Of a DNA stretch of 64,000 nucleotides, positions 1-61,994 are shown piece after piece. This DNA comes from Candidatus Doudnabacteria bacterium. Its GTDB lineage: Bacteria; Patescibacteriota; JAQUNI01. Positions within the stretch are counted from its first letter, which is position 1. Every line of letters begins with the position of its first letter. The notes beneath the pieces are model-generated. The model searched no databases. It was given only the letters and a program-made list of their open reading frames with translations, and was not told the origin of the DNA. The stretch lies in contig JBAZQX010000004.1 in assembly GCA_041644975.1 (NCBI GenBank), positions 9,189-73,188 of the forward strand. Direction: 5' to 3'. The translations under genes were made by a program, and so were the position numbers.

Positions 1-526
1 ATCCTTTTTCTTTTAAATAATGCCTTAGAGAAATATCTTGAGTATTGCCCTGTTGGGGCGAAGCAATCTTTTTCCCCTCCAAAGCTTTAAGGCCTTCCTT
101 CTTATATAAAGAAGCTAATTCTGGTTGGACGACTAAAGAAGCGCCACCCGAGGTCGCACCGCTAATAATCTTTAAAGCTTCACCGTTTGATTTAATATAA
201 CCGTTGATGGCCGGGCTGGGACCAATGTAGCCGATATCAATCTGCCCGGCGAACAAGGCTTCAATTTCTGAAGGCCCAGCATTAAAAGTCTCTGTTTTAA
301 TAGTAATATTATCACCTAAAAATTTCTGGAATGTCTCCTGGGCCATGCCGACTAAAGCCTGCGAATGCGTAATATTGGGAAAATAACCCACTCTAATCGT
401 CTGTTTATTTATTACCTCCTGAGGATTGGCAGTTTGCTCTTTTTTATGTTGATATCTTACAATAAAAAAAACTGATAAACTAAAAATTAAGACAAAAACC
501 AAGATGAAAAAAAGAATCTTACGCAT
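1..526 (-). CDS. ABC transporter substrate-binding protein, NitT/TauT (SsuA-like) family; 5' part only, gene continues past the left window edge
   Basis: Minus-strand ORF from ATG (rc of 524-526) reading MRKILFFILVFVLIFSLSVFFIV...TIRVGYFPNITHSQALVGMAQETF...SGATSGGASLVVQPELASLYKKEGLKALEGKKIASPQQGNTQDISLRHYLKEKG. N-terminal TM/signal then a periplasmic-binding fold typical of sulfonate/nitrate binding proteins. Absent from the ORF track because it is open at the edge. Confidence 0.55.
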   Translation of the reverse strand, partial: MRKILFFILVFVLIFSLSVFFIVRYQHKKEQTANPQEVINKQTIRVGYFPNITHSQALVGMAQETFQKFLGDNITIKTETFNAGPSEIEALFAGQIDIGYIGPSPAINGYIKSNGEALKIISGATSGGASLVVQPELASLYKKEGLKALEGKKIASPQQGNTQDISLRHYLKEKG

Positions 527-560
527 AGTATTTAAAAAAATTAAAATTAATAATATAATT

Positions 561-1560: not shown

Positions 1561-1708
1561 CAAATTTCCCAATTTCCGTGTCGCAAAATTATTATATTAT
1601 TTATAAAAATTTGGGCAAACCCCATTAGAAACTTCACCACAGCATAATTTATCAAAACGCGTTTTTGGCGAAATCTGTAAAGGATGGTTTCTAACGGGGC
1701 AAATCCCG

Positions 1709-5503: not shown

Positions 5504-5524
5504 TCTCCCTACTATTAACCGTTT

Positions 5525-5581
5525 AAGGATGTCATTCGCGAATGACATCCTTAAAGATATCCTTGTGATATCTTTTTTTAT
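5525..5581 (+). terminator. Tandem hairpins (28-bp perfect palindrome aaggatgtcattcgcgaatgacatcctt, then agatatc…gatatct + T-run) terminating hsp20
   Basis: Perfect stems followed by TTTTTTT. Confidence 0.65.
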
Positions 5582-15269: not shown

Positions 15270-15520
15270 AAAATTAATTTCAGTAGATAATTATTATTTT
15301 GTAAAATGCAATCTTTTCATATTTTTAAATTATTTTTCAAGCATCACTATTTAACCAGAAACACGAAGCTCCCCGCCAGCGATAGCCTTGCGGCTACCCA
15401 TATCCCTTTCGAGATATGACCGACTAAGGTGCTCTGAACGAGGAGCTTGATGCCTTAGTCGGTTTTATGCCATACCTCATAGCAAAACTATCAGGGTTAG
15501 GCAATTTAATTTTCAAAATA

Positions 15521-15815: not shown

Positions 15816-17423
15816 ATGACACCAGAAGCAAAAATTTGGCTAATTTTAAAAAATCTAAATGATGCACTTACAATTGCCCCGAGCAAAAATTTGGCACTGT
15901 TGAACGCAAAAGACTTAGAGAAGTTGATGGCTAGAGAAGAGCACGAACAAATTTTGGAAAAGTTAGTTAAGGATTACAAAGTGGTGGATATTCAGAAAAA
16001 ACCAGATTATCAAAAAAGCTTTTTTTACAAATGCAAAATTACTGACAGCGACGAGTTTAATAAAATTTTAGAAGATGCTCATATCAAATATTTTGGTAGT
16101 TTAGGAATGCTGACAGGTGATAATTTTTTATCCGTAGTTGATGTAGCGACAGACATAATGAACGAGCTCCAAATGACCAAGGGGGATGAAACAGTGATAC
16201 CGCTTTTTCCATCCATTGTCAGATTTTCTAATCTTATGCCAGCAGACAGTATTAACTTAAGAGATAGATACTGTGATTTGAGATGGAAAGCAGTAATATA
16301 TTTAAGAGATAATGAATATATTAAAAATTTTAAGCTATTGAATCAAGCTTATGGAAACTTCCACAGATGGGATTTTGAAATCAAAATATCGCTGAATAGA
16401 ATTAAATTTTATAAATTTTACGAACAATTGATAACAACATATAATAGGCGGGTAAAATTTAGAAGTGAAGAGAAAAAAATAAAAAAGGAAAATGAAGCCC
16501 TAGACTATACAGACACAGCTTCAAGAAGGGCGTGGGAGAAAAAATGGGACACATTGCAAGTAATATGGACTATTTATGAAAGCAACAACAAACCAAATCA
16601 GCTACTTGTGCCTATTAAAAGACTAACTATTAAAGATAGAATCATTCTTGAAATTGAAGGTCTATTAAACGGCTTTGAAGATGATGGCTGTTTTGATTGG
16701 TGTAGAGGAACGGAGAATTATGAGATTAAAAACATAAACCACAACCTATTTGCAGAAACTTACAAAAAAACAGGGCTTATTTATGATAAATTCGCCAAGA
16801 TTTACCGAGAAAGGGTTAGCGATAAAAATATTGAAGATAAACAACCAACACAAAAAATTGAAATTGTTGGAGGTAAAATAGAAATTGAAGGATTGCAGGA
16901 TGGATTAAAAGCAATCGCCCAGACCAAAAAAGAAGATAAAAATCAATTTCCTTATAAATTACCAGCAGGAACGAAATGGGAAAATTTTACTATTAAGTTT
17001 GAGGATGATGAAAATGTTTTTATCCAAGTAAAACAATTTAAGTATAGTGCTGACTACAGAAAGATGGGAATGGTCGGACGAGGCAAAAATCCCAATCCAA
17101 GCGAAGCGTGGACATTTCTGAAAGTTTTATCTCAAGTTAATAATGAACTGACAATAAAAGACGCCGAAGCGAGAGATAAATATAAAAAACAAAAAGAATT
17201 ATTAGCAAAAGCACTTCAAAAATACTTCTTACTTGATTATGACCCCTTCTATCCTTATCACTCATCAACAGAAAAAAGCGGCAACTCTTATAAAATTAAA
17301 ATTACCCTAATACCGCCACCAGACAAAAAAGAAAAAGCTGATACTAATAAAGACGATAACGACGATTTAGGAATAAAAGAATACTTCAATAAACAAACTC
17401 CACAAATTTATGAAGACCAGTAG
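15816..17423 (+). CDS. Large hypothetical protein (535 aa ORFan) in the mobile element
   Basis: No recognisable catalytic motifs. Followed by a clear terminator. Confidence 0.5.
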   Translation: MTPEAKIWLILKNLNDALTIAPSKNLALLNAKDLEKLMAREEHEQILEKLVKDYKVVDIQKKPDYQKSFFYKCKITDSDEFNKILEDAHIKYFGSLGMLTGDNFLSVVDVATDIMNELQMTKGDETVIPLFPSIVRFSNLMPADSINLRDRYCDLRWKAVIYLRDNEYIKNFKLLNQAYGNFHRWDFEIKISLNRIKFYKFYEQLITTYNRRVKFRSEEKKIKKENEALDYTDTASRRAWEKKWDTLQVIWTIYESNNKPNQLLVPIKRLTIKDRIILEIEGLLNGFEDDGCFDWCRGTENYEIKNINHNLFAETYKKTGLIYDKFAKIYRERVSDKNIEDKQPTQKIEIVGGKIEIEGLQDGLKAIAQTKKEDKNQFPYKLPAGTKWENFTIKFEDDENVFIQVKQFKYSADYRKMGMVGRGKNPNPSEAWTFLKVLSQVNNELTIKDAEARDKYKKQKELLAKALQKYFLLDYDPFYPYHSSTEKSGNSYKIKITLIPPPDKKEKADTNKDDNDDLGIKEYFNKQTPQIYEDQ

Positions 17424-17460
17424 CGAAGTTAACCTTTAGCTTTTAATAAATCTCTTACAT

Positions 17461-17496
17461 AAAACTCCTCACAAAATGGGGAGTTTTTTGTTTTTC
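17461..17496 (+). terminator. Intrinsic terminator after the 535-aa ORF
   Basis: aactcc…ggagtt stem + TTTTTTGTTTTT. Confidence 0.6.
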
Positions 17497-17578
17497 TGCG
17501 ACAGAGCGTGAAATTCGCCATCTATAAGTAGAAGGTCGCAAAAAATAAAAAAATCACAATTACCCAAAATTAAATTAT

Positions 17579-17839
17579 ATGGTTAAAAAATCACAAAAAA
17601 GTCAGTCAGACGAGATGTTCGCCACTTACGATTTAGGATGTGCCGCCGCTTTGATAACGGCAGATTTTGAGTTGCTCACTTTGGATAAAGCTAATCCACG
17701 CAAAGTCCAGTTCATCTTTCGCCGAGAAGTCGGCATTGAAAAAGTCGTGGATGACTACTGGGCTGACAGATTAGAAGTTAAAGCACGGGCGTTCTTTGAT
17801 AATATCAAAATGTTAAAGAACCGCATTTACTCGGAATAA
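17579..17839 (+). CDS. Small hypothetical protein, possibly phage-associated (weak DUF5659-like pattern)
   Basis: FATYDLGCAAALITADFELLTLDKANPRKVQFIFRRE loosely resembles DUF5659-type small phage proteins as recalled, not verified. Confidence 0.35.
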   Translation: MVKKSQKSQSDEMFATYDLGCAAALITADFELLTLDKANPRKVQFIFRREVGIEKVVDDYWADRLEVKARAFFDNIKMLKNRIYSE

Positions 17840-17842
17840 ATT

Positions 17843-18040
17843 ATGATAACCGATGTGCAGATTGCAAAATTCCAGACACTTTACAAAAATCGCTTTGGCA
17901 AAACAATCAGCCGAGAGGAAGCGTTTGATATGGGAGTAAAACTCATCCGATTAGTTGAGTTGATTTACAAACCGATGAAAGAAAATGAATATCAGGAATT
18001 GCAGAAACGCCGCCAAAGCCAAAAAACTGACGACATTTAA
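17843..18040 (+). CDS. Small hypothetical protein
   Basis: 65 aa, 4 nt after the previous gene (operonic). Confidence 0.35.
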   Translation: MITDVQIAKFQTLYKNRFGKTISREEAFDMGVKLIRLVELIYKPMKENEYQELQKRRQSQKTDDI

Positions 18041-18060
18041 TAAAATTTAACATTAAAATT

Positions 18061-20295
18061 ATGCAAGAATTACAAACCATTACAATTAAAGAGTATCTGG
18101 CACGCAAAGGCGTTGCCTTTCGTGAGAGCGGCAAAGAGCTTATCACCCACTGCCTTTTTAACGGCTGTGATGAGAATAGCAAAACTAACGAAGCTCATCT
18201 TTATTTTGACGCAGAAACAGGGCAATTCAACTGCAAAAAGTGCGGCGAAAAAGGCAACCTCATAACCCTTGCTAAACATCTTGGCGATAGAATAAATGAT
18301 ATTGCCCTTAATCCAATAGCTCCCATTAAAAATTCACAAAAATCCACGAAATTTGACGCAGAGCTGGTTGAAACCTGTCATCAAGCACTTTCAGTCAATA
18401 TCCGCCAGTATTTGAACGCACGGGGCATCACAGACCCCATTATAGACACATACAAGCTTGGTTGGGGCAAATTCTACGGCAAATGGTGGATTACTATTCC
18501 TATTCAGGATATTGATGGAAATTTTGTTTTTCTCAAATTACGGCAAGACCCAGAAGATACAAATAATCCAGATAAATATAAATTTTATCCTGCTGGGAGT
18601 AGCGCAACTATCTATGGATGGAAAATGCTGAAAAATAACAAAGGCACCATTGTAATCTGCGAAGGTGAGTTTGACCAATTAGTGTTGTTACAAAATGCTA
18701 TTCCCGCTATCACTTCCACGGCTGGCGTTGGAACTTTCAAAAAAGAGTGGATTGAATACTTGAAAAAATTGGAAAAAATTTATATTTGCTTTGATAAAGA
18801 TGAAGCTGGTGAGAAAGGAGCAGAGCGGCTCATTAAACTTTTATCTGAACATTTATCTGATACTGCTATTTACAAAATTACGCTCCCAGAACGAATGGTT
18901 GACGGCAAAGATATAACCGATTATTTCCTAAGATACAACGGCAATGTGGATGAATTGATTTACAAATTAGCAAAAGAATATCCAGAGCGAATTGATACCT
19001 CGCAGTTCAAGCCGCTATCCTCGCAGGATTTGGTTGAAATACTTGGATTGACGATAAAGCAGGATGATGAAAATAAAATCGTAACCTTCCTTTGCGAGTT
19101 ATCGGCATATACGGAAAACGCTCAATTCAACATCAGCTTTAACGCACCATCATCTACGGGTAAAAGCTATATCCCCACCGAGATTGCTCGGTTATTCCCA
19201 GAAGAAGATGTAATGGAGCTTGCCTATTGCAGTCCTACGGCATTTTTTCACGATGTCGGCGAATGGAACAAAGATATGAAAGGATATGTCGTGGATTTGT
19301 CTCGCAAAATTTTGATTTTTCTTGACCAACCACATACTTTACTTCTTCAACATCTCCGTCCGTTGCTCTCGCACGATAAAAAGGAGATTTCGGTGAAAAT
19401 TACTGATAAGACGCAGAAGTTTGGATTGAAGACCAAAAATATCCTACTCAAAGGATACCCCGCAGTGATTTTCTGCACGGCAGGATTGTTGATTAACGAG
19501 CAGGAAGCAACACGATTTCTCCTGTTAAGCCCAGAGATTAACCAAGAGAAAATCAGGCAAGGGATTTTGGAGAGCATTAAAAAAGAAGCAGACGCCGAGA
19601 GCTATAAGGGCTGGCTGGATGAAAACCCCGAACGAAAGCTACTTAAAGAGCGGATACGGGCAATAAAACTGGAAGGTATCCGTGAAATAAAAATTGCAAG
19701 TTATCAAAAGGTTGTTGATAGATTTTTGAGCGAAAATAAGGTGCTCAAGCCCCGACACCAGCGAGACATTAAACGCCTTGTCTCAATTATAAAATCCTTT
19801 GCCTTAATCAATCTCTGGTGGCGGGAAAAAAACGGCACAACCATTACCGCCAATGAGGATGACATTGAACAGGCATTTAAGATTTGGGACGCTATCTGCA
19901 TAAGCCAAGAGCTTAGTCTGCCACCGTATATCTACAATCTCTACCAAGAAGTTATCTTGAAGGCGTGGAATGACAAAAATAGCAACAGAAGCGAGGCAAC
20001 GGGACTGCTCGGCTTATCACGGCAGGAACTACTGCAAAAGCACTTTGAGGTCTATGGGCGGATGTTGGACACAAACCAGCTACGCCAGCAGATTTTGCCA
20101 ATGCTGGAGATGGCGGGGCTTATCGTGCAAGAGGCAGACCAAAACGACAAACGAAAAATGTTGATTTCCCCTACCGCACTAACCACTAAATCTCCGAACC
20201 AAAACAATAGTGAGAACGGGGGTGGGGTGAGCACCAACGAGGAAAACAATAGTGAAACGCAGGGTGGGGTAACTCCAAACTTAGGAATTTTCTGA
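18061..20295 (+). CDS. DNA primase (CHC2 zinc finger + TOPRIM) fused to a C-terminal P-loop NTPase-like domain (phage/plasmid primase, P4-alpha-like architecture)
   Basis: CHC2 ribbon HCLFNGCDENSKTNEAHLYFDAETGQFNCKKCGEKG. TOPRIM GTIVICEGEFDQ … CFDKDEAGEKGAERL. Walker-A-like NAPSSTGKSY in the C-terminal half. Confidence 0.75.
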   Translation: MQELQTITIKEYLARKGVAFRESGKELITHCLFNGCDENSKTNEAHLYFDAETGQFNCKKCGEKGNLITLAKHLGDRINDIALNPIAPIKNSQKSTKFDAELVETCHQALSVNIRQYLNARGITDPIIDTYKLGWGKFYGKWWITIPIQDIDGNFVFLKLRQDPEDTNNPDKYKFYPAGSSATIYGWKMLKNNKGTIVICEGEFDQLVLLQNAIPAITSTAGVGTFKKEWIEYLKKLEKIYICFDKDEAGEKGAERLIKLLSEHLSDTAIYKITLPERMVDGKDITDYFLRYNGNVDELIYKLAKEYPERIDTSQFKPLSSQDLVEILGLTIKQDDENKIVTFLCELSAYTENAQFNISFNAPSSTGKSYIPTEIARLFPEEDVMELAYCSPTAFFHDVGEWNKDMKGYVVDLSRKILIFLDQPHTLLLQHLRPLLSHDKKEISVKITDKTQKFGLKTKNILLKGYPAVIFCTAGLLINEQEATRFLLLSPEINQEKIRQGILESIKKEADAESYKGWLDENPERKLLKERIRAIKLEGIREIKIASYQKVVDRFLSENKVLKPRHQRDIKRLVSIIKSFALINLWWREKNGTTITANEDDIEQAFKIWDAICISQELSLPPYIYNLYQEVILKAWNDKNSNRSEATGLLGLSRQELLQKHFEVYGRMLDTNQLRQQILPMLEMAGLIVQEADQNDKRKMLISPTALTTKSPNQNNSENGGGVSTNEENNSETQGGVTPNLGIF

Positions 20296-20336
20296 CACTA
20301 TAAAAAAGGGCGAAAAACATATAACACTTCTAACAT

Positions 20337-20801
20337 ATGACAAAAGTATCACAAAAACAATTAGAGGCAAACCAAAAAAACGCCAAGCTCGGCGGAGTAA
20401 AGACCGATGAGGGCAAGGCGGTAAGTAAGCTAAATGCTTTAAAACACGGACTATTAAGTAAAGAGGTATTACTTAATGAAGAAGACGAAAAATCCCTTAT
20501 TGAACTCGGAAAAAGATTGCGGACAGAGTTAAAACCAGATACGGAACTTGAGCTATTGTTAGTTGATAGGATTGTAGCGAATTTTTGGAGATTGCGAAGA
20601 GCAATGATAATAGAACAACACGATGTTATCTCTGACACTGGAGGGTTAATGTATGATTGTGATAAATTTTTCCGCTATGAGACACTGCTTGAAAGAGGAA
20701 TTTATAAAGCCCTTCACGAATTGCAACGGATACAATCTGCTCGTGCTGGAGAGAAACCGCCCGCCCCATTGGCAGTGGATATTGATGTTTCTACTGATTA
20801 A
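20337..20801 (+). CDS. Hypothetical protein (mobile-element cargo)
   Basis: 154 aa, no known motif. Confidence 0.4.
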   Translation: MTKVSQKQLEANQKNAKLGGVKTDEGKAVSKLNALKHGLLSKEVLLNEEDEKSLIELGKRLRTELKPDTELELLLVDRIVANFWRLRRAMIIEQHDVISDTGGLMYDCDKFFRYETLLERGIYKALHELQRIQSARAGEKPPAPLAVDIDVSTD

Positions 20802-20950
20802 TAAAATGGGTTTGTTTCGCAAAAATGGTGGCTTTTGGTGGCTTTTTTTGTAAGGTTAATTGGAACAACAATTTATTCTTTATTCAAGCGGAAAAATTGA
20901 TTTTAATTTCAAAAAATAAACCTATCAATCTCTAATGATTTCGGCGGATT

Positions 20951-21553
20951 TTGAGAAAAAATATTATGGCAAAGCAAGAAGCAGAATGGAGTAAAAGATT
21001 AAGTATTTTCTGGCTAAAGAAGCACGGCTATCTTGATGGCGGCTGGCAGTATGGGAGTATTAAGTGGACTTATGGGATGAGCGGCAATGAAAGCAGTATC
21101 GGCTTCAATGTTATGATTAACGGGGATGAGGGCGACAATATCAGATTACAATACACATACACGAGCCGAGGAACTGATGAAAAAGAAAGTATGGATTACA
21201 GGGTTGAACTTACTACAACTCCTTGTAACTATGGCGGCAAACGATACTGGTTTATCTGCCCACTAACCAAGGATGGAAAGTATTGTGGACGGCGGGTAGG
21301 GGTGCTTTTCAGTATTGGCAAGTGGTTCGGTTGCCGACACTGTGGAAATATTGCATACCAATCACAGTTTGAGGGCGGTAATATTCGCACAGGTTCAGTT
21401 TTTGAACCAGATGTTGAAAAAGCATACAACGAAGTGAAATTGCAATACTACAACGGCAAACCAACAAGAAAATATAAACGCTACCTACGATTAAGACAAA
21501 AGATGGATAATTCGTGGGCAAAAGCGGCTTTAAAATTTGGCATTAAGTTTTAA
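20951..21553 (+). CDS. Hypothetical protein with C4 zinc-ribbon (CNYGGKRYWFICP…CGRRVGVLFSIGKWFGCRHCGN)
   Basis: Two CxxC pairs. Otherwise unrecognised. Confidence 0.4.
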   Translation: MRKNIMAKQEAEWSKRLSIFWLKKHGYLDGGWQYGSIKWTYGMSGNESSIGFNVMINGDEGDNIRLQYTYTSRGTDEKESMDYRVELTTTPCNYGGKRYWFICPLTKDGKYCGRRVGVLFSIGKWFGCRHCGNIAYQSQFEGGNIRTGSVFEPDVEKAYNEVKLQYYNGKPTRKYKRYLRLRQKMDNSWAKAALKFGIKF

Positions 21554-21582
21554 GTATGGTATTATAGATGTGTTGACCCGCC

Positions 21583-21682
21583 GCAAAAGCAATTCACAAG
21601 GATTTTTATTTGTAATGCTGTCCCTAAAGGGGCGGTCTGCCAGCATTACTACTCCTTGTGAGCAAGTGGTTGGGTCAACCAG
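21583..21682. promoter_or_regulatory. Inverted-repeat structure upstream of the recombinase gene: gttgaccc…gggtcaac flanking gtaatgctg-22nt-cagcattac
   Basis: Perfect 9-bp inverted repeat inside an outer 8-bp inverted repeat. Candidate recombination/operator site. Confidence 0.4.
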
Positions 21683-21704
21683 ACCGTCCTTTTAAGTAAT
21701 AAAT

Positions 21705-23402
21705 ATGACAAAAATTACACAAATTACACAAAAAAACATAAAAAATAAATATTTTCTTTATGCCCGCAAGTCATCAGAAAGCGAAGATAGACAGGTGCAG
21801 TCCATTGATGACCAAGTAAATCGGCTTAAACAACTTGCCAAAGATTTAAGTTTGGATATTAAAAAAATCTATACCGAATCAAAAACAGCCAAGAAGCCAA
21901 ACAACCGCCCCCTATTTGATGAAATGATACAGAGAATTGAAAATGGCGAAGCGGATGGAATTTTATGCTGGCACTTAAACAGATTGACACGCAACCCAAT
22001 TGATAGCGGTAAATTAAGTTGGCTTTTGCAACAAGGAGTAATCAAATCCATTCAAACCATAGAACGACAATATCTACCCGATGACAATGTTCTACTATTT
22101 AATGTTGAGACTGGTCAGGCTAATCAGTATCTTTTGGATTTAAGCCGTGATACTAAACGGGGACTTCTCAAAAAACTGAATACGGGCTGGCAAAATGGCA
22201 TCGCCCCATTGGGTTATCTGAATGACAAAGAAAACAAAACTATTATCAAAGACCCAGAGCGTTTTAATCTCGTCCGCAAAATGTGGGATTTAATGCTCAC
22301 GGGCAATTATACGCCGCCAAAGATTTTAGATATTGCTAATAAGGAGTGGGGTTTTAGAACACGAAAATTCAAAAGGATTGGCGGCTGTCCTCTGTCCAGA
22401 AGCGGGATTTATAAAATTTTTACAAGTTTGTTCTATGCGGGGGTTATTGAAAATAAAGGGGTGCAATATGAGGGGAAACACGAGCCGATAATTACCCTTG
22501 AAGAATACGACCGAGTGCAAATGTTGCTTGGGAGAAAAGGCAAGCCAAGACCCAAAAAGCACAAATTTGCCTTTACTGGATTTATTCGGTGCGGGGAGTG
22601 CGGCTGTCTTTATACTGCTGAAACAAAACAAAAACTAATCAAAAGCACTGGCGAAATCAAAAAATATACTTATTATCATTGCACCAGAAAAAAAAGAGAT
22701 ATTAACTGCACCCAAAGGAAATTTATTAGAGAAAACAAATTAGAACTCCAAATTGAAAAAGAATTAGAAAAATACACTATTCTCCCAGAATTTTTACATT
22801 GGGCTTTAGAGGGTCTGAATAAAAAAAATGACACCGAAATTGAAGACCGAACAAAAATTTATGAAATGCAACATAAAACTTTAACTGAAACTCAAAAAGG
22901 ATTGGACGAGCTTACTAAAATGAGATACCGCCAGTTAATTGATGATGAAACTTTTGTCAAAGAGCGTAATGAATTACAAACCAAAATCACCCAGCTTAAA
23001 GAAAAATTAAGAGAAACCGAAAGCCGAGCCGAGCGATGGCTGGAGCTAACAGAGAAGACTTTTAATTTTGCAACATATGCTAGAAAAGCATTTTTGATAG
23101 GAGGGTTAGAACTAAAGAAAGAAATACTGATGACATTAGGGAAAAATGCGATAATAAAGGACAAAAAGCTCTATATTGAGCCGAATGAATGGCTACAACC
23201 AATCAAAAATGGCTATCCTGCCTTAGAAAAAGAATATCTAAGGTTAGAACCAGCCAAAATGCGCTTAAATAAAACAAAAACAGAGGCTTTAACCTCTGTT
23301 CGTGCACGGTGGCTGGGGAGGCAGGATTCGAACCTGCGAATGGCGGCTTCAAAGGCCGCTGCCTTACCACTTGGCTACTCCCCAAAATGGAATCAGGAAT
23401 AA
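21705..23402 (+). CDS. Large serine recombinase (resolvase/invertase catalytic domain + recombinase domain + zinc ribbon + coiled coil)
   Basis: YARKSS…DDQ catalytic region, GILCWHLNRLTR, CGECGCLYTAE…YYHCTRKK zinc ribbon. The last roughly 30 codons are antisense translation of tRNA-Gln. Confidence 0.85.
   Translation: MTKITQITQKNIKNKYFLYARKSSESEDRQVQSIDDQVNRLKQLAKDLSLDIKKIYTESKTAKKPNNRPLFDEMIQRIENGEADGILCWHLNRLTRNPIDSGKLSWLLQQGVIKSIQTIERQYLPDDNVLLFNVETGQANQYLLDLSRDTKRGLLKKLNTGWQNGIAPLGYLNDKENKTIIKDPERFNLVRKMWDLMLTGNYTPPKILDIANKEWGFRTRKFKRIGGCPLSRSGIYKIFTSLFYAGVIENKGVQYEGKHEPIITLEEYDRVQMLLGRKGKPRPKKHKFAFTGFIRCGECGCLYTAETKQKLIKSTGEIKKYTYYHCTRKKRDINCTQRKFIRENKLELQIEKELEKYTILPEFLHWALEGLNKKNDTEIEDRTKIYEMQHKTLTETQKGLDELTKMRYRQLIDDETFVKERNELQTKITQLKEKLRETESRAERWLELTEKTFNFATYARKAFLIGGLELKKEILMTLGKNAIIKDKKLYIEPNEWLQPIKNGYPALEKEYLRLEPAKMRLNKTKTEALTSVRARWLGRQDSNLRMAASKAAALPLGYSPKWNQE
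23310..23384 (-). tRNA. tRNA-Gln (anticodon UUG), CCA encoded
   Basis: rc = TGGGGAGTAGCCAAGTGGTAAGGCAGCGGCCTTTGAAGCCGCCATTCGCAGGTTCGAATCCTGCCTCCCCAGCCA. 7-bp acceptor with U1-A72, anticodon stem CGGCC/GGCCG, loop CUUUGAA, T-arm GCAGG-TTCGAAT-CCTGC. Confidence 0.85.
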
Positions 23403-23471: not shown

Positions 23472-25109
23472 CTATTTCACAATCTCCCCTCCCAAAACCT
23501 CCAACGCTTCTCTAGTTAAATTATTATTCTGCCGCAATTCCACCTTTTCGCATTGAATCTGCCATTTGCCACCTAAGATTTGGTCTAAAACCCCTTCCAC
23601 TATTTTTTTATTGCGGGCTTGAGAAACCATATCTTTATGGAAATCCCGCGGGAAACCCAAAACCAAGGAGCCATCGCGAAAAGCGACTGGCTGGCAGAGT
23701 TTCAAGAAAGCGCATAGAGAATAATTTAAAGGTTCCACCGCCTTTAATACCTCGCTCCATTTACCTACTGCCTGTTCTAAATTCATTGTCGGCTTTTGAT
23801 ATTCGGGCAACCCCGTTAGATGTCTACTATCTAACGGGGCAAAGGAAGGCATTGATGGCTCTTCTTCTTTTTCTCCCAGTTTCGGGCTTTGCGTTTTCTC
23901 CTCGGTCTGCCCGCCTAAATTTGCCCGCCTAAATTTGCTTTCAAATTTTGGCGGGTTTGCTGACAAACTTGGGTGGGTCTGCCGCGCTTCCGCTACTTTG
24001 CCCATTGCTTCACTATATTCTATAATGGCTAACTCCAAAGACAATTGAGGAATTAAAGCCGCGTCCAAACTATTCTTCGCAGCCATAAAAAGCCTTACTA
24101 AATAGGCTAAACTTTTCAGAGAGAAATTTTGGGCGCGAGCGACTAATTCTTCTTTTTGGGCAGCAGAAAAAGAAAGCCCGGCGTGATCCAATAAAGCGGG
24201 CTGAACCTTAGCCAACATCATTCTGCGGAGATAATCAACGAGCTCGTCTGTAAAATTAAATAGGTCTTGACCATTGGCGACGATCTCGTTCACTTTGCGA
24301 ATAGCTTGCGCGCTGTCGCAAGAAGCCAGCATATTCACGAAATCGGATATTAAAGACCAATCGACCGTGCCTGAAAAATCAGCCACTTTACTCAACTTGA
24401 GCTCTTTTTTGGGCCAAGAAAGAATCTGACCTAAAATACCTTCGGCATCCCGCTCCCCGCCGTCCGCTTTGATGGCGATCAATCTCAAAATCTCGGGGTT
24501 TAAAGCGCGCTTCTCCTCCCTTAAAATCCGCGCTAAGCGGTGTTCAATTTCAGCGACTGTTAATTTTTTAAAGTCAAATCTCTGACAGCGTGAAAGAATC
24601 GTCTCTGGCACTTCGTGCACCTCTGTCGTCGCTAAAATGAAAAGAGTACGCGGAGGCGGCTCTTCCAAGGTTTTTAAAAGAGCGTTAAAGGCTTCCCGTG
24701 TCAACATATGCGCTTCATCAATAATAAAAACTTTAAAACTGTCTCTTTGGGGCGCGAAACGCACATTCTCACGGAGAGCGCGAATCTCATTGATGCCGCG
24801 GTTGGAGGCGGCGTCAATCTCAATTAAATCCAATGACCTGCCAACCGTAATCTCCTGACAACTCACACAACGGTTGCAGGGTTCCACTTTCCCGAGCCTG
24901 CGCTCGCGCACGCTTTTTTTGTTCTGGCAATTAATCGCTTTAGCGAGAATGCGCGCCACGGTGGTCTTGCCAATGCCGCGGGGACCCGCGAAAATATAAG
25001 CATGGGCAATTTTGCCCAAGCTTAATTCATTCTTTAAAGTTTGGATAATGGCAGTCTGTCCCTCCACTTCAGAAAATTTTTGCGGTCTGTATTTACGATA
25101 TAAAGTCAT
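23472..25109 (-). CDS. dnaX: DNA polymerase III subunit gamma/tau
   Basis: YRPQKFSEVEGQ…AYIFAGPRGIGKTT (Walker A), zinc module C..C..C, SRCQRF. Confidence 0.9.
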   Translation of the reverse strand: MTLYRKYRPQKFSEVEGQTAIIQTLKNELSLGKIAHAYIFAGPRGIGKTTVARILAKAINCQNKKSVRERRLGKVEPCNRCVSCQEITVGRSLDLIEIDAASNRGINEIRALRENVRFAPQRDSFKVFIIDEAHMLTREAFNALLKTLEEPPPRTLFILATTEVHEVPETILSRCQRFDFKKLTVAEIEHRLARILREEKRALNPEILRLIAIKADGGERDAEGILGQILSWPKKELKLSKVADFSGTVDWSLISDFVNMLASCDSAQAIRKVNEIVANGQDLFNFTDELVDYLRRMMLAKVQPALLDHAGLSFSAAQKEELVARAQNFSLKSLAYLVRLFMAAKNSLDAALIPQLSLELAIIEYSEAMGKVAEARQTHPSLSANPPKFESKFRRANLGGQTEEKTQSPKLGEKEEEPSMPSFAPLDSRHLTGLPEYQKPTMNLEQAVGKWSEVLKAVEPLNYSLCAFLKLCQPVAFRDGSLVLGFPRDFHKDMVSQARNKKIVEGVLDQILGGKWQIQCEKVELRQNNNLTREALEVLGGEIVK

Positions 25110-26949: not shown

Positions 26950-27078
26950 AAGGTCAATGATTTGTATTTGACCCCGTTAGAAACATGCCCCGCGGCTAGG
27001 CTAGCGGTTGGGTAGAAATGATAACTCGTGCGGTTGGGTTTCATGCCTCGCACGAGTTTCTAACGGGGTTGACCTTCC
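26950..27078. repeat. Nested-hairpin element (CCCCGTTAGAAAC…GTTTCTAACGGGG with inner ctcgtgcg…cgcacgag hairpin)
   Basis: Member of the family also at 1621-1699, 36194-36340, 61867-61994, and short 29-bp versions at 23811-23839 and 40079-40108. Confidence 0.75.
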
Positions 27079-36190: not shown

Positions 36191-36193
36191 TTT

Positions 36194-36340
36194 ACCCCAT
36201 TAGAGAAAGTTCATCCTGTTACAAATAAATTTGTAACGGGACACGCTGACAAAGTCGGTGGCGGGGAAGATATAGACGCTGACGGTGGTTTAATGCTACC
36301 GTCAGCGGAAACCGTTAGAGAACGAAGTTCTCTAACGGGG
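36194..36340. repeat. Nested-hairpin element (CCCCATTAGAGAA…TTCTCTAACGGGG) with inner cctgttacaaataaatttgtaacggg and gctgacggtggtttaatgctaccgtcagc hairpins
   Basis: Closest relative is 61867-61994, which shares the outer arms and the gttacaaat…atttgtaac inner hairpin. Confidence 0.75.
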
Positions 36341-36655
36341 TTTACACACAATCTCTTGCACTTGTAAAACTGTATACTGCGGACGAAAGCCTTGTCTTTT
36401 GGTATATCGCTTTTTCGCTTTGAATTTCAAAATATGCACTTTTTTACCTTTCTTGAGCGGCTCCAAAACCTTGACGGAAACCGAAATGCCAGAGACGCGC
36501 GGCTGGCCAACCTTAATCCCTTTATCATCCGCGTATACTAAAACATCATCCAAATTAATTGTTTCTTCTTTTTTGACATCCATTTTATCCACTTCTAAAA
36601 CATCACCCCGCGAAACCATATATTGTTTTCCCTGAACACGAATAATAGCAAACAT
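36332..36655 (-). CDS. rplU: 50S ribosomal protein L21
   Basis: MFAIIRVQGKQYMVSRGDVLEVDKM…ILKFKAKKRYTKRQGFRPQYT. Confidence 0.9.
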   Translation of the reverse strand: MFAIIRVQGKQYMVSRGDVLEVDKMDVKKEETINLDDVLVYADDKGIKVGQPRVSGISVSVKVLEPLKKGKKVHILKFKAKKRYTKRQGFRPQYTVLQVQEIVCKPR

Positions 36656-39626: not shown

Positions 39627-40040
39627 TTATTGGTTGATATAAATCAAGCTTACTGCCCCGATTAAAACAAAAATTTGCACCGTGAACGCGGTTAAAAGTA
39701 AAATATAATTTACAAGACGATCTTTCAAATAAAACCAAAAGCCGAGGACAAAATTCATTAAAATAATGAAGAGCCCAATTAAAGGGAGGGTAAAAATACG
39801 GCGATAGGAACCAATTAAGTCAATACCAAAATAGATATTATAATGAAGAGGAATGGGATATTCCGAGGGTTTGATAAAATAAGCCAAAAAAATCCAACTT
39901 AAAATGTTAAAAAATAAGCTCCCGAAAAAAAATCCTAAATTAGTTTTATTGCGCCAAAATTGGGCGCGAAAAAAGCTCTGGACATAAGCCAGGAAACGGC
40001 TAAAAATATTTAGTTTTTCTTGATTTTGGACCTCTTGCAT
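39627..40040 (-). CDS. Hypothetical integral membrane protein (4 TM)
   Basis: Hydrophobicity only. Confidence 0.45.
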   Translation of the reverse strand: MQEVQNQEKLNIFSRFLAYVQSFFRAQFWRNKTNLGFFFGSLFFNILSWIFLAYFIKPSEYPIPLHYNIYFGIDLIGSYRRIFTLPLIGLFIILMNFVLGFWFYLKDRLVNYILLLTAFTVQIFVLIGAVSLIYINQ

Positions 40041-40234
40041 CTTGCTATAACTATATCTAAAAAAGCCTTAAAAGTAAACCCCGTTAGATGTTTACTATCT
40101 AACAGGGTAAACAAAATATTGACAAATAAAAATAGCTGTGCTTTAATGTAGTTTCTCCCCCAAATTGATCTTTTATCAAACAAGTTTCCTGATTTTGGGA
40201 GAAGATTGGGAAAAATCATACGGAGGAATGAGAG

Positions 40235-41161
40235 ATGGCTGAACAGAAATATGTTATTGGAAGATTGGTGGCTGAAGTGAATGATAATGGCGCAATAAAT
40301 GGTGAATTAACCGATCTTACAGTTTATGAAGGAAGACGACCAGCAAAAGCCGAAGACTTTGGCGCAGATCCCGAGCAAATTGCTTTACTGAATTCCAGAA
40401 TTCCTCGTGCGAAAATCAACACTTTAGTGCGTCCCGGTGTTGGTGCGGGGATAATCTTATTTAGTCTCTATACCTTAAGACTAACACAGGAAAAATGGAT
40501 GGAAAAATTTATGATGAATGTTAAATCTCTGAAACAGAAAGCAATTATTGGTCCTCGCCGTAATATTAGAGCAGGAGGCACTTGGCTGGTGCAAGATACC
40601 TGTGCTGGGATCTTGGAAGAAAAAGATTTTATCGCAGGAGCGATAAAGGAAATGGTGGAAATTGGATTTTATGATGTTGATGGTTGGCTAAAATATATAT
40701 TGCCAGTAGAATATTCACAGTATCAAGATATGCTAGATCAAGAACAGAAAAGTGTTTGGCAACTTTTCGGCGGTCCTGATTTTAAACCAATTAAGGAGGA
40801 AATGGTAAATATATTAAAAGCGCGAGATAGCCTTAATGGTTTTTCTGTGATACTGTCCGGGGAAGAGAATTCTGGAAGCGCTGAAATTACACTACTAACT
40901 TCAATAAGTCTGCCAATAATAGAAAAAGGTTGGCTAATAACAGATCTGGAAACCGGTAGCGATGATGAAAGAGGAGAATTTTTACTAAACAGGAAGGTGT
41001 TGGTTATAGCAGAAAGACAAATGAAAACCCCTATCCAGATTGGATTTGGAGATGAGGGGATGGATCTTGATTATCCAGCTATAGCCATGGAGGGTGAGAA
41101 TCTTTTACTGAATACAAATGCTAAGGTGCGCTCAATGATGGCGTATCTAGGTTGGATCTAA
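40235..41161 (+). CDS. Hypothetical protein (308 aa ORFan)
   Basis: No recognised motif. Confidence 0.45.
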   Translation: MAEQKYVIGRLVAEVNDNGAINGELTDLTVYEGRRPAKAEDFGADPEQIALLNSRIPRAKINTLVRPGVGAGIILFSLYTLRLTQEKWMEKFMMNVKSLKQKAIIGPRRNIRAGGTWLVQDTCAGILEEKDFIAGAIKEMVEIGFYDVDGWLKYILPVEYSQYQDMLDQEQKSVWQLFGGPDFKPIKEEMVNILKARDSLNGFSVILSGEENSGSAEITLLTSISLPIIEKGWLITDLETGSDDERGEFLLNRKVLVIAERQMKTPIQIGFGDEGMDLDYPAIAMEGENLLLNTNAKVRSMMAYLGWI

Positions 41162-41221
41162 GAATCTGTAGAAGACTTTGGTTCAAGTCGGGAGACTTGA
41201 ACCAATAAAAGGAGTAAGAAA

Positions 41222-61839: not shown

Positions 61840-61866
61840 ATAGTGAACCCCATTAGAGAATTTCTT

Positions 61867-61994
61867 TATCTAACCCCGTTTAAAAATTTATTTTTAACGG
61901 GGTCAGCGTCTATATTTTTCCCACCATCCCGTTACAAATTTATTTGTAACAGGATGAACTTTCTCTAACGGGGGTAAAAAAATTATTTTTTAAC
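61867..61994. repeat. Nested-hairpin element (CCCCATTAGAGAA…TCTCTAACGGGGG) with inner ccccgtttaaaaatttatttttaacgggg and cccgttacaaatttatttgtaacagg hairpins
   Basis: Related to 36194-36340. Confidence 0.75.

Follow-up and report, generated by a model that had tools for sequence, protein, structure and literature searches.

The 64,000-nt stretch of Candidatus Doudnabacteria DNA analysed here (the window; contig JBAZQX010000004.1 of assembly GCA_041644975.1) carries within dnaX, the gene for the gamma and tau subunits of DNA polymerase III, a 29-bp hairpin that is very probably a mobile element insertion as such and most likely a minimal, non-autonomous DNA transposon resembling MITEs, the miniature transposable elements with inverted repeats. 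The 29-mer, at positions 23811-23839 in the orientation of the gene, consists of two perfectly complementary 11-bp arms, CCCCGTTAGAT and ATCTAACGGGG, around a 7-nt centre, GTCTACT (AGTAGAC on the mRNA strand), which is asymmetric and not self-complementary. A reading made earlier from the sequence alone had placed it at this position in dnaX and translated it as APLDSRHLTG, and both the location and the translation (...F-APLDSRHLTG-L...) were recovered, although its description of a perfect 29-bp palindrome holds for the arms only. Either strand, as RNA or as single-stranded DNA, is predicted to fold into a stem of 11-12 bp with a loop of 5-7 nt, at -19.3 to -19.6 kcal/mol and a z-score of about -4 against shuffled sequences.

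The presence of the element is polymorphic between close relatives. When DnaX, which is 100% identical to an NCBI entry from Candidatus Doudnabacteria, was aligned with its eight closest orthologs (55-89% identity), the FAPLDSRHLTG segment was found in none of the eight proteins, and comparison at the DNA level with the two closest, L001 (GCA_028717685.1) and L002, showed that the site in both is without the 29-mer. The dnaX gene of L001, the closest ortholog and about 95% identical over aligned columns, is without exactly 33 nt at this point, corresponding to the 29-mer plus 4 nt, and the flanks are otherwise collinear in the nucleotide alignment; the junctions read CCTTCC-TTTG-[29-mer]-TTG-CCCGAA in the window and CCTTCC-TTA-CCCGAA in L001, and the empty site can be reconstructed as …CCTTCCTTGCCCGAATATC…. 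The alignment proposed by the sequence-only reading thus favoured its suggestion that a palindromic element had entered an essential gene without destroying the frame, the event being a clean in-frame insertion of 33 nt; the estimate of about 10 inserted residues was one short of the 11 found, and none of the aligned orthologs encodes the same residues without the palindrome.

The inserted residues lie between Pfam domain III and DnaX_C, in a linker (residues 378-441) that has a predicted local distance difference test score (pLDDT) below 50 and no secondary structure in an AlphaFold2 model built on the ortholog alignment, and the linker stretch around the insert also differs in length between DnaX orthologs. 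The insertion site is accordingly predicted to be disordered and tolerant. Nothing suggests a role for the element in dnaX, where it looks like tolerated selfish DNA, and the copy is presumably neutral.

The same linker contains a second oddity, an 81-nt (27-residue) segment at 23901-23981 that L001 lacks and of which L002 has only a part. The segment holds a 14+4+14 hairpin at 23924-23955 (CCCGCCTAAATTTG cttt CAAATTTTGGCGGG), the left arm of which is tandemly duplicated (14-mer, 23910-23937); this hairpin is unique in the window and its sequence is unrelated to the CCCCGTTAGA family described below.

Programmed frameshifting in Escherichia coli dnaX uses a stem-loop, a textbook case that invites a reading in which the hairpin is functional and under selection, whether as a regulatory RNA, a terminator or insulator, an operator, or a pausing or frameshift signal for a short gamma form of DnaX. 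The strength of the fold (-19 kcal/mol; z about -4 to -6) would fit such a role, as would an intergenic copy of the element that, at the level of consensus matches, resembles a minus-strand terminator with a promoter-like site close behind it. The reading is nevertheless very unlikely, given that the hairpin is absent from the closest ortholog, that no X XXY YYZ slippery heptamer lies 5-9 nt upstream of it (...GGA GAA AAA GAA GAA GAG CCA TCA ATG CCT TCC TTT G-CCCC), that the dnaX copy is not terminator-like and that Rfam gives no match, while duplications and insertions in unrelated genes point to mobility. The Rfam search yielded no match to the element at the gathering score in the window, and with E-values up to 10 allowed, both 29-mer copies and four other loci gave nothing near threshold.

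The dnaX element is one of six members of a family in the window, some of them nested (Table 1), in keeping with the nested-hairpin family recognized in the sequence-only reading, the further members having the same ends. The second 29-nt copy, previously noted as a near-identical intergenic copy, matches the dnaX 29-mer at 27 of 29 positions in the same orientation and is indeed intergenic, ending at 40107 and not at 40108. Its outer stem is CCCT/GGGG, with a G-U pair in minus-strand RNA, and it lies between divergent genes at 39627-40040 (-) and 40235-41161 (+), 39 nt and 128 nt, respectively, upstream of their starts; consensus matches, and these only, make it terminator-like on the minus strand with a promoter-like site following. 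Exactly two matches to the 29-mer with three mismatches or fewer occur in the window, against 0.00 expected from 100 dinucleotide-preserving shuffles, which, with the hundreds of copies bearing target-site duplications elsewhere, excludes the coincidence that had been allowed for. A search of the whole window, also suggested beforehand, found the 29-mer in no other coding region. For presence or absence of the second copy in a relative, the sole related contig is L122 (Logan SRR22387966; 97% identical to window 40121-41205), which stops 13 nt short of the site. At the site of the 97-nt member, L001 carries a shorter, degenerate version of 41 nt, and related copies occur in L208 and L240.

Table 1. 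Members of the hairpin family and features of dnaX; coordinates are positions in the 64,000-nt window unless residues are given
Feature	Coordinates	With flanking repeats	Strand	Details
80-nt member	1620-1699	1616-1703		Intergenic; ends CCCCATTAGAAAC...GTTTCTAACGGGG; CAAA/CAAA exact
dnaX (DNA polymerase III gamma/tau)	23472-25109		minus	545 aa
DnaX Pfam domains	residues 18-183, 187-228, 239-365, 439-527			239-365, domain III; 439-527, DnaX_C
29-nt member (hairpin element in dnaX)	23811-23839		minus	Inside dnaX; sequence ccccgttagatgtctactatctaacgggg; flanking 4-mers imperfect
Net insertion in dnaX	23811-23843		minus	33 nt = 11 codons, residues 423-433, FAPLDSRHLTG
97-nt member	26972-27068	26968-27072		Intergenic; ends CCCCGTTAGAAAC...GTTTCTAACGGGG; TTGA/TTGA exact
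146-nt composite	36195-36340	36191-36344		Internal hairpins; TTTA/TTTA exact
Hairpin within 146-nt composite	36313-36340			CCGTTAGAGAAC-gaa-GTTCTCTAACGG
29-nt member, second copy	40079-40107	40075-40111	minus	Intergenic; TAAA/TAAA exact (TTTA on minus)
126-nt composite	61848-61973			Flanking repeats imperfect, TGAA / GTAA
Small hairpins nested in 126-nt composite	61874-61902; 61927-61956			First, 29 nt with 13-bp arms

Beyond the window, a scan of GTDB with one genome per species and 19 fixed bases (GTTAGATAGTNNACATCTAAC) detected at least 116 stretches matching this core in the species representatives, where about four would be expected by our own estimate from the size of the collection and the 19 bases. 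A scan of metagenomes with a looser pattern, in which nothing but the outermost ten bases of either end was fixed (CCCCGTTAGA N5-35 TCTAACGGGG) and which was chosen against the bias of the 19-base pattern, detected at least 129 elements with very diverse interiors. These are 25-55 nt long (55 nt being the limit of the pattern), with a mode at 29 nt and lesser peaks at 32-33, 38-40 and 52-53 nt, and the family as a whole ranges from 25 to about 150 nt. Its ends form a 13-bp terminal inverted repeat of consensus CCCCGTTAGARAY (CCCCGTTAGA-R-A-Y), the opposite end being RTYTCTAACGGGG. Conservation covers positions 1-13 from each end and the sequence is random from position 14 onward; the 29-mer thus amounts to a pair of 13-bp ends with about 3 nt to spare. 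In the commonest type of 29-mer the centre is AGTAAAC in place of the AGTAGAC of the dnaX copy, and this loop is nearly invariant in the GTDB copies. Four outer pairs that the pattern did not demand are also conserved there as CCC[C/T]...[G/A]GGG, with compensatory changes between the two sides of the stem (CCCC/GGGG in 49 copies, CCCT/AGGG in 28, CCCA/TGGG and CCGT/AGCG in one each) and 17 single-step intermediates.

The exact 29-mer type was found in metagenome-assembled genomes (MAGs) labelled as at least 15 phyla, about 55 carrier MAGs being among the matches listed. The labels include WOR-3, Stahlbacteria, Omnitrophota, Nitrospirota, Nitrospinota, Planctomycetota (including Scalindua), Deltaproteobacteria/Thermodesulfobacteriota (Desulfobacterota), Elusimicrobia, Aerophobetes, Cloacimonadota and Chloroflexota/Dehalococcoidales, together with Parcubacteria, Falkowbacteria, Nealsonbacteria and Saccharibacteria of the Candidate Phyla Radiation (CPR). 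Carrier loci have GC contents of 31-55% and lie on contigs of up to 2.9 Mb. Assemblies rich in copies include JAHJQK01, JBFMAM01, JAUXAN01, DAOUSS01, JAZDOX01 and PCWD01, besides the Doudnabacteria assembly of the window. IMG/VR contains three matches to the exact type and 23 to the family, the plasmid records of PLSDB contain no match to the element, and phage records gave chance matches only. Many of the GTDB matches lie within 10-50 nt of contig ends, and the family appears to break short-read assemblies.

That the carriers are all MAGs, with many copies at contig ends, could be taken to indicate a chance resemblance or an artefact of sequencing or assembly. The probability of this is negligible: no matches are expected in shuffled sequence, the copies vary in a compensatory manner, they come from many projects and assemblers and from contigs of up to 2.9 Mb, the reading frames of conserved enzymes run through them, and contig breaks at repeats are to be expected.

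Longer arrangements recur in distant lineages as well. The 146-nt composite and a segment of an Omnitrophota MAG (L069:2298-2441) agree in the order of their four hairpins and in their TAAA flanks, with 73% identity over 156 nt; multi-hairpin composites shared by CPR and Omnitrophota genomes therefore also travel between phyla as units.

Insertion of family members is accompanied by a 4-bp target-site duplication. Exact, abutting 4-nt direct repeats flank 66 of 125 metagenome elements, whereas none was found in 125 controls with flanks shifted by 5 nt, and the number rises to 84 of 125 when one mismatch is allowed. Among GTDB copies of the 29-mer, 32 of 119 have exact abutting repeats, most often TTTA (15) and TTCA (7), then TCAA, TTTG, CTCG, CTGG, TCAG, TCTA, CGCG and others; CTTG and CGTG are further duplicated 4-mers in the family. 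The duplicated 4-mers vary between copies and are therefore duplications and not part of the element, and a target consensus of YTTR followed by C (YTTR-C) can be derived from them. Longer members (61, 97, 119, 128 and 144-146 nt) likewise carry matching 4-mers, and 29-mers nested within longer members have duplications of their own (TCAG in L061, TCTA in L099).

Some 29-mers have a different setting. In some phyla they lie within longer, lineage-specific repeats bounded by direct repeats of 8-9 nt instead of the 4-nt duplication, namely AATCTGYGT in MAGs of Deltaproteobacteria type (L005, L019, L031, L044, L067 and others) and AACCACAGA in the Nitrospirota MAG138 (L010, L035, L068, L075), and a CCACAGA/TCTGTGG motif recurs beside the 29-mer core in three phyla. 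Homologous flanks in WOR-3 and Stahlbacteria MAGs (GGTCATTCA[..]CAGGGAG) enclose the 7-nt centre in either of two orientations, one in L003, L059 and L116 and the other in L023, L057, L064, L081 and L115, suggesting that the centre may flip in situ between the perfect arms.

The duplications bear directly on whether the elements could move as single-stranded DNA. A REP/REPIN-like (repetitive extragenic palindromic) or IS200/IS605-type element, mobilized by an HUH transposase (Y1, RAYT-like) and inserted beside a tetranucleotide, would account for a short and stable hairpin with a stem kept by compensatory changes, for the T-rich tetranucleotide that abuts the 5′ side in most copies and for the strand or orientation bias of about 28:4 relative to the target. 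Such an element is improbable, however, since both flanks vary together (CTGG/CTGG, TCAG/TCAG, CGTG/CGTG), which denotes a duplication of a kind not made by HUH transposition. Pairing between interior and flank, the guide-like complementarity of IS200/IS605, does not exceed the chance level (5-6 observed; 5.4-5.7 in shuffled sequences). Outside the stem there is no conserved 5′ motif of the GTAG type, neither a RAYT nor a TnpA gene is a recurrent neighbour of the copies, and many copies are intragenic. The loop had been considered as a target guide, its GTAAA being complementary to a TTTAC flank, and this was rejected because the diverse family has no excess complementarity; loop variants do not shift the duplication.

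The 29-mers could alternatively be excision footprints, in which a larger cut-and-paste transposon leaves behind the duplication and the tips of both ends, the remnants themselves being immobile. Elements that are almost nothing but two ends and a duplication, a sharp size peak at 29 nt and the lack of a visible parent beside the elements would all be accommodated, and yet a single 29-mer, its 7-nt centre included, is present hundreds of times at unrelated sites and in unrelated phyla, which fits the copying of a unit better than it does separate, imprecise excisions. Other members, up to 146 nt long, have interiors that remain conserved as a unit from one phylum to another, and nested copies have their own duplications, so that an origin as footprints is also very improbable.

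The geometry of the 29-mer, with two identical 11-bp arms around an asymmetric 7-bp centre, resembles that of tyrosine-recombinase core sites, the window has its two copies 16.2 kb apart in direct orientation, and a gene for a large serine recombinase lies 400 bp from dnaX. It could be supposed from this that the 29-mer is a site-specific recombination site and that two direct copies, or the nearby recombinase, define an excisable segment. The integron core consensus is GTTRRRY/RYYYAAC, and GTTAGAT/ATCTAAC fit it. This explanation is scarcely tenable, as the intervening housekeeping genes (recR, dnaB, cysS and most of dnaX) are collinear with those of L001, whose dnaX has no copy, recombination sites are without 4-bp duplications and are not solitary inside genes, and no recombinase recurs near the copies. 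The GTT and AAC boxes (GTTAGAT...ATCTAAC) are moreover in the reverse order to attC on either strand; an integron attC site (RYYYAAC ... GTTRRRY, an imperfect palindrome of 57-141 nt) was rejected on this box order and because the 29-mers are solitary, with neither arrays nor an integrase nearby.

In contrast to these alternatives, the combination of 13-bp ends, variable 4-bp duplications, free interiors, nesting and insertion polymorphism indicates a non-autonomous cut-and-paste element. MITEs are defined in one review by inverted ends, flanking duplications, a size typically below 500 bp and non-autonomy (PMC10969869). The dnaX element and its family have terminal inverted repeats, a duplication of fixed length (in the family), small size, multiple copies, size variants and insertion polymorphism, and on these sequence features the element would qualify as MITE-like by the review's description, apart from the parent. 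It is proposed that a transposase supplied in trans would bind both ends of about 13 bp and insert the element at a T-rich YTTR-C site through a 4-bp staggered cut, repair of which would duplicate the 4 bp. The 29-mer would then represent two such ends back to back with about three unpaired bases between them, and one copy would have landed in the DnaX linker between domain III and the C-terminal tau domain, where it is read through as FAPLDSRHLTG. Provided that the element is mobile, it is about an even question whether the mobilizing enzyme is a DDE-type cut-and-paste transposase.

Several observations weigh against a MITE-like transposon. All 29 nt are near-identical across phyla, which is unusual for MITEs, normally lineage-specific. 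The family's 4-nt flanks usually match exactly, and the junction of the dnaX copy is atypical in that its two 4-mers repeat each other imperfectly (read on the mRNA strand as TTTG / TTGC and on the plus strand as GCAA / CAAA), the junction being 1 nt off on each side, with an extra T on the left and a missing C on the right. Had CTTG, a 4-mer in keeping with the target consensus, been duplicated cleanly, the dnaX frame would have read ...TTG CCC CGT TAG with an in-frame stop, and it is the extra T and missing C that keep the frame open; derivation of the junction from a clean 4-bp duplication was attempted, and no single simple event fits. In addition, the T-rich strand of the duplication is the loop strand in about 28 of 32 informative GTDB copies with the AGTAAAC centre, a polarity not expected of an element with symmetric ends. 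Finally, no transposase is encoded in the window, where the only recombinase is the large serine recombinase beside a tRNA-Gln gene, no autonomous parent was found, there being no element of 0.3-5 kb with family ends in about 1.6 Mb (243 loci), and an IS1380-like transposase was not detected by tblastn with the ISEcp1 transposase as probe in the window and the same loci.

Candidate parents had been sought as pairs of ends 300-5000 bp apart with matching 4-mers (L204, L154, L146, L232, L158 and others), and each proved to be two independent small elements around ordinary genes, just as apparently lone family ends proved to be degenerate small hairpins. In L204 (4767-6929), two near-identical 33-nt members with CAAA flanks bracket a two-gene cassette in the manner of a composite transposon, which may be coincidence; the cassette consists of a glycosyltransferase-like open reading frame (ORF), judged by eye, and an ORF of 432 residues. 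All-against-all clustering of neighbouring ORFs revealed no recurrent neighbouring gene, the clusters being housekeeping only (IscS, FtsE-like ABC ATPases, histidine kinases and clamp-loader subunits), and for dispersed, non-autonomous elements no consistent neighbour would be expected.

With respect to an enzyme source, IS1380 is a prokaryotic relative of piggyBac, with ends that start with CC and duplications of 4-5 bp (ISfinder tables), and piggyBac elements have CCC...GGG termini and TTAA duplications. The 4-bp duplication and CC start of the family agree with these tables, but the resemblance between the ends is weak (the ISEcp1 left end, CCTAGATTCTACGT, as checked in plasmids, shares TAGAT with CCCCGTTAGAT) the family target is YTTR-C and not TTAA, and no direct link to an IS1380 element was found, so that an affinity with IS1380 is only a lead.

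Comparable insertions occur in other genes. Because the element and its duplication together make 33 nt (29 + 4), or 11 codons, and the 29-mer has no stop in three of its six frames (PLDSKHLTG, PVRCLLSNG and PLDVYYLTG), insertions into tolerant parts of proteins survive selection. Eighteen of 121 copies are located within stretches that stay open for 150 codons or more, some 12-16 of them clearly intragenic, and all three open frames are represented among the intragenic copies. Hosts recognized by Pfam include RecG, a DNA methylase, GtrA, TnpB, apolipoprotein N-acyltransferase (Lnt), an ArsP permease, a sortase and a SPOR protein, with the copies mostly at inter-domain or terminal positions. 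An Elusimicrobia UDP-GlcNAc 2-epimerase compared with structure 5enz has a 12-residue gap exactly at ...NPVRCLLSNGV..., and for an Omnitrophota cysteine desulfurase compared with structure 9wep the gap, of 11 residues, falls at VNPVRCLLSNG. The insertion in dnaX therefore exemplifies a general behaviour. In a Planctomycetota MAG (L076:672-1601), a tnpB gene (OrfB_IS605 / Cas12f-like TNB) carries an in-frame 29-mer just past the TNB domain, a case of one mobile element parasitized by another.

Several classes of small repeat resemble the family in part. Like MITEs, its members have terminal inverted repeats and duplications, code for nothing, are present in many copies and in size variants whose ends are conserved, are occasionally inserted in frame into genes and are presumed to be mobilized in trans; unlike MITEs, they are much smaller, with a modal unit of 29 bp that consists essentially of two ends, have no known parent insertion sequence and are spread over many phyla instead of one lineage. 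The smallest MITE copies cited in the review are remnants of QMITE1 of 39 bp (PMC10969869). The Rickettsia palindromic elements (RPEs; Ogata et al., 2000) are described in the same source as about 100-150 bp long, adding about 30-50 residues and confined to Rickettsia (PMC10969869). They too are palindromic, selfish DNA found in frame in unrelated and often essential genes, with the extra peptide at structurally tolerant places; the 29-mer, however, is five times shorter and not restricted to a lineage, RPEs are not described with a sharp 4-bp duplication, and no resemblance in sequence is evident by eye.

The small dispersed repeats (SDRs) of cyanobacteria are reportedly 21-27 nt long, hairpin-prone and nested, as Elhai and colleagues are said to have described in 2008 (Genome Res 18:1484). 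The family resembles SDR4-6 in being very small, mobile, hairpin-prone and subject to nesting, with a mobilizing activity that is not known, but the sequences differ and SDR4-6, for which the work of Elhai and colleagues is cited in PMC3116915 and PMC5861425, are reported only from the Nostocaceae. REPs are extragenic and species-specific, without target duplication, and are linked to a RAYT gene (PMC3116915). The family shares with REPs and REPINs the form of short, dispersed, hairpin-forming palindromes that are sometimes paired or nested, and differs from them in being intragenic as well, in its 4-bp duplications, in its occurrence in many phyla and in the lack of a recurrent RAYT neighbour. 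A search of 8 million papers and preprints with the element sequence and the encoded peptides returned nothing relevant, and one combining MITEs with the CPR returned nothing related; a family of ultra-small transposable hairpins that crosses phyla is apparently undescribed.

It can tentatively be suggested that the CCCCGTTAGARAY hairpins form an undescribed pan-bacterial superfamily of elements of 25-150 bp, mobilized by an enzyme other than a standard co-resident insertion sequence transposase and perhaps carried on phages, plasmids or episymbionts, in which a 29-nt unit crosses phyla (including the CPR and their potential hosts) essentially unchanged and gives rise to recurrent insertions of 11 residues in essential proteins. 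Among transposable units for which a clean target-site duplication is documented, the 29-mer would be about the smallest; it would be essentially no more than two ends for a transposase to bind, and as such would constrain the minimal needs of a transposase. CPR bacteria are thought to live on other cells, and a 29-nt sequence that is near-identical in MAGs of at least 15 phyla, from sediments and groundwater, would mark DNA traffic among uncultivated lineages, these ultra-small bacteria included. The arithmetic of 33 nt and stop-free frames would offer selfish DNA a simple, repeatable route to the addition of short peptides to conserved enzymes (DnaX, IscS, WecB, RecG and Lnt), and would go beyond what was already described for the far larger RPEs. 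In annotation, the family would explain odd inserts of 11 residues (TPLDSKHLTG, NPVRCLLSNG, PLDVYYLTG) and contig breaks in MAGs.

The window contains further features of other kinds. Next to dnaX, positions 15816-23402 represent a probable integrated mobile element with a tRNA-Gln gene at 23310-23384 (-); it encodes a Toprim-domain protein (18061-20295), several ORFs without a Pfam match and the large serine recombinase (21705-23402), the tail of whose ORF runs antisense through the tRNA-Gln gene. Downstream of its dnaX, L001 has other genes (bAvd-like and others). A perfect 34-bp palindrome without a spacer, TTTAAGGATGTCATTCG/CGAATGACATCCTTAAA, lies at 5522-5555 and is unrelated to the hairpin family. 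At 15381-15503 (-), in a gap between two large ORFs of unknown function, the LOOT RNA of Rfam (RF03000) is matched over its full length with 88.9 bits, against a gathering score of 46.4.

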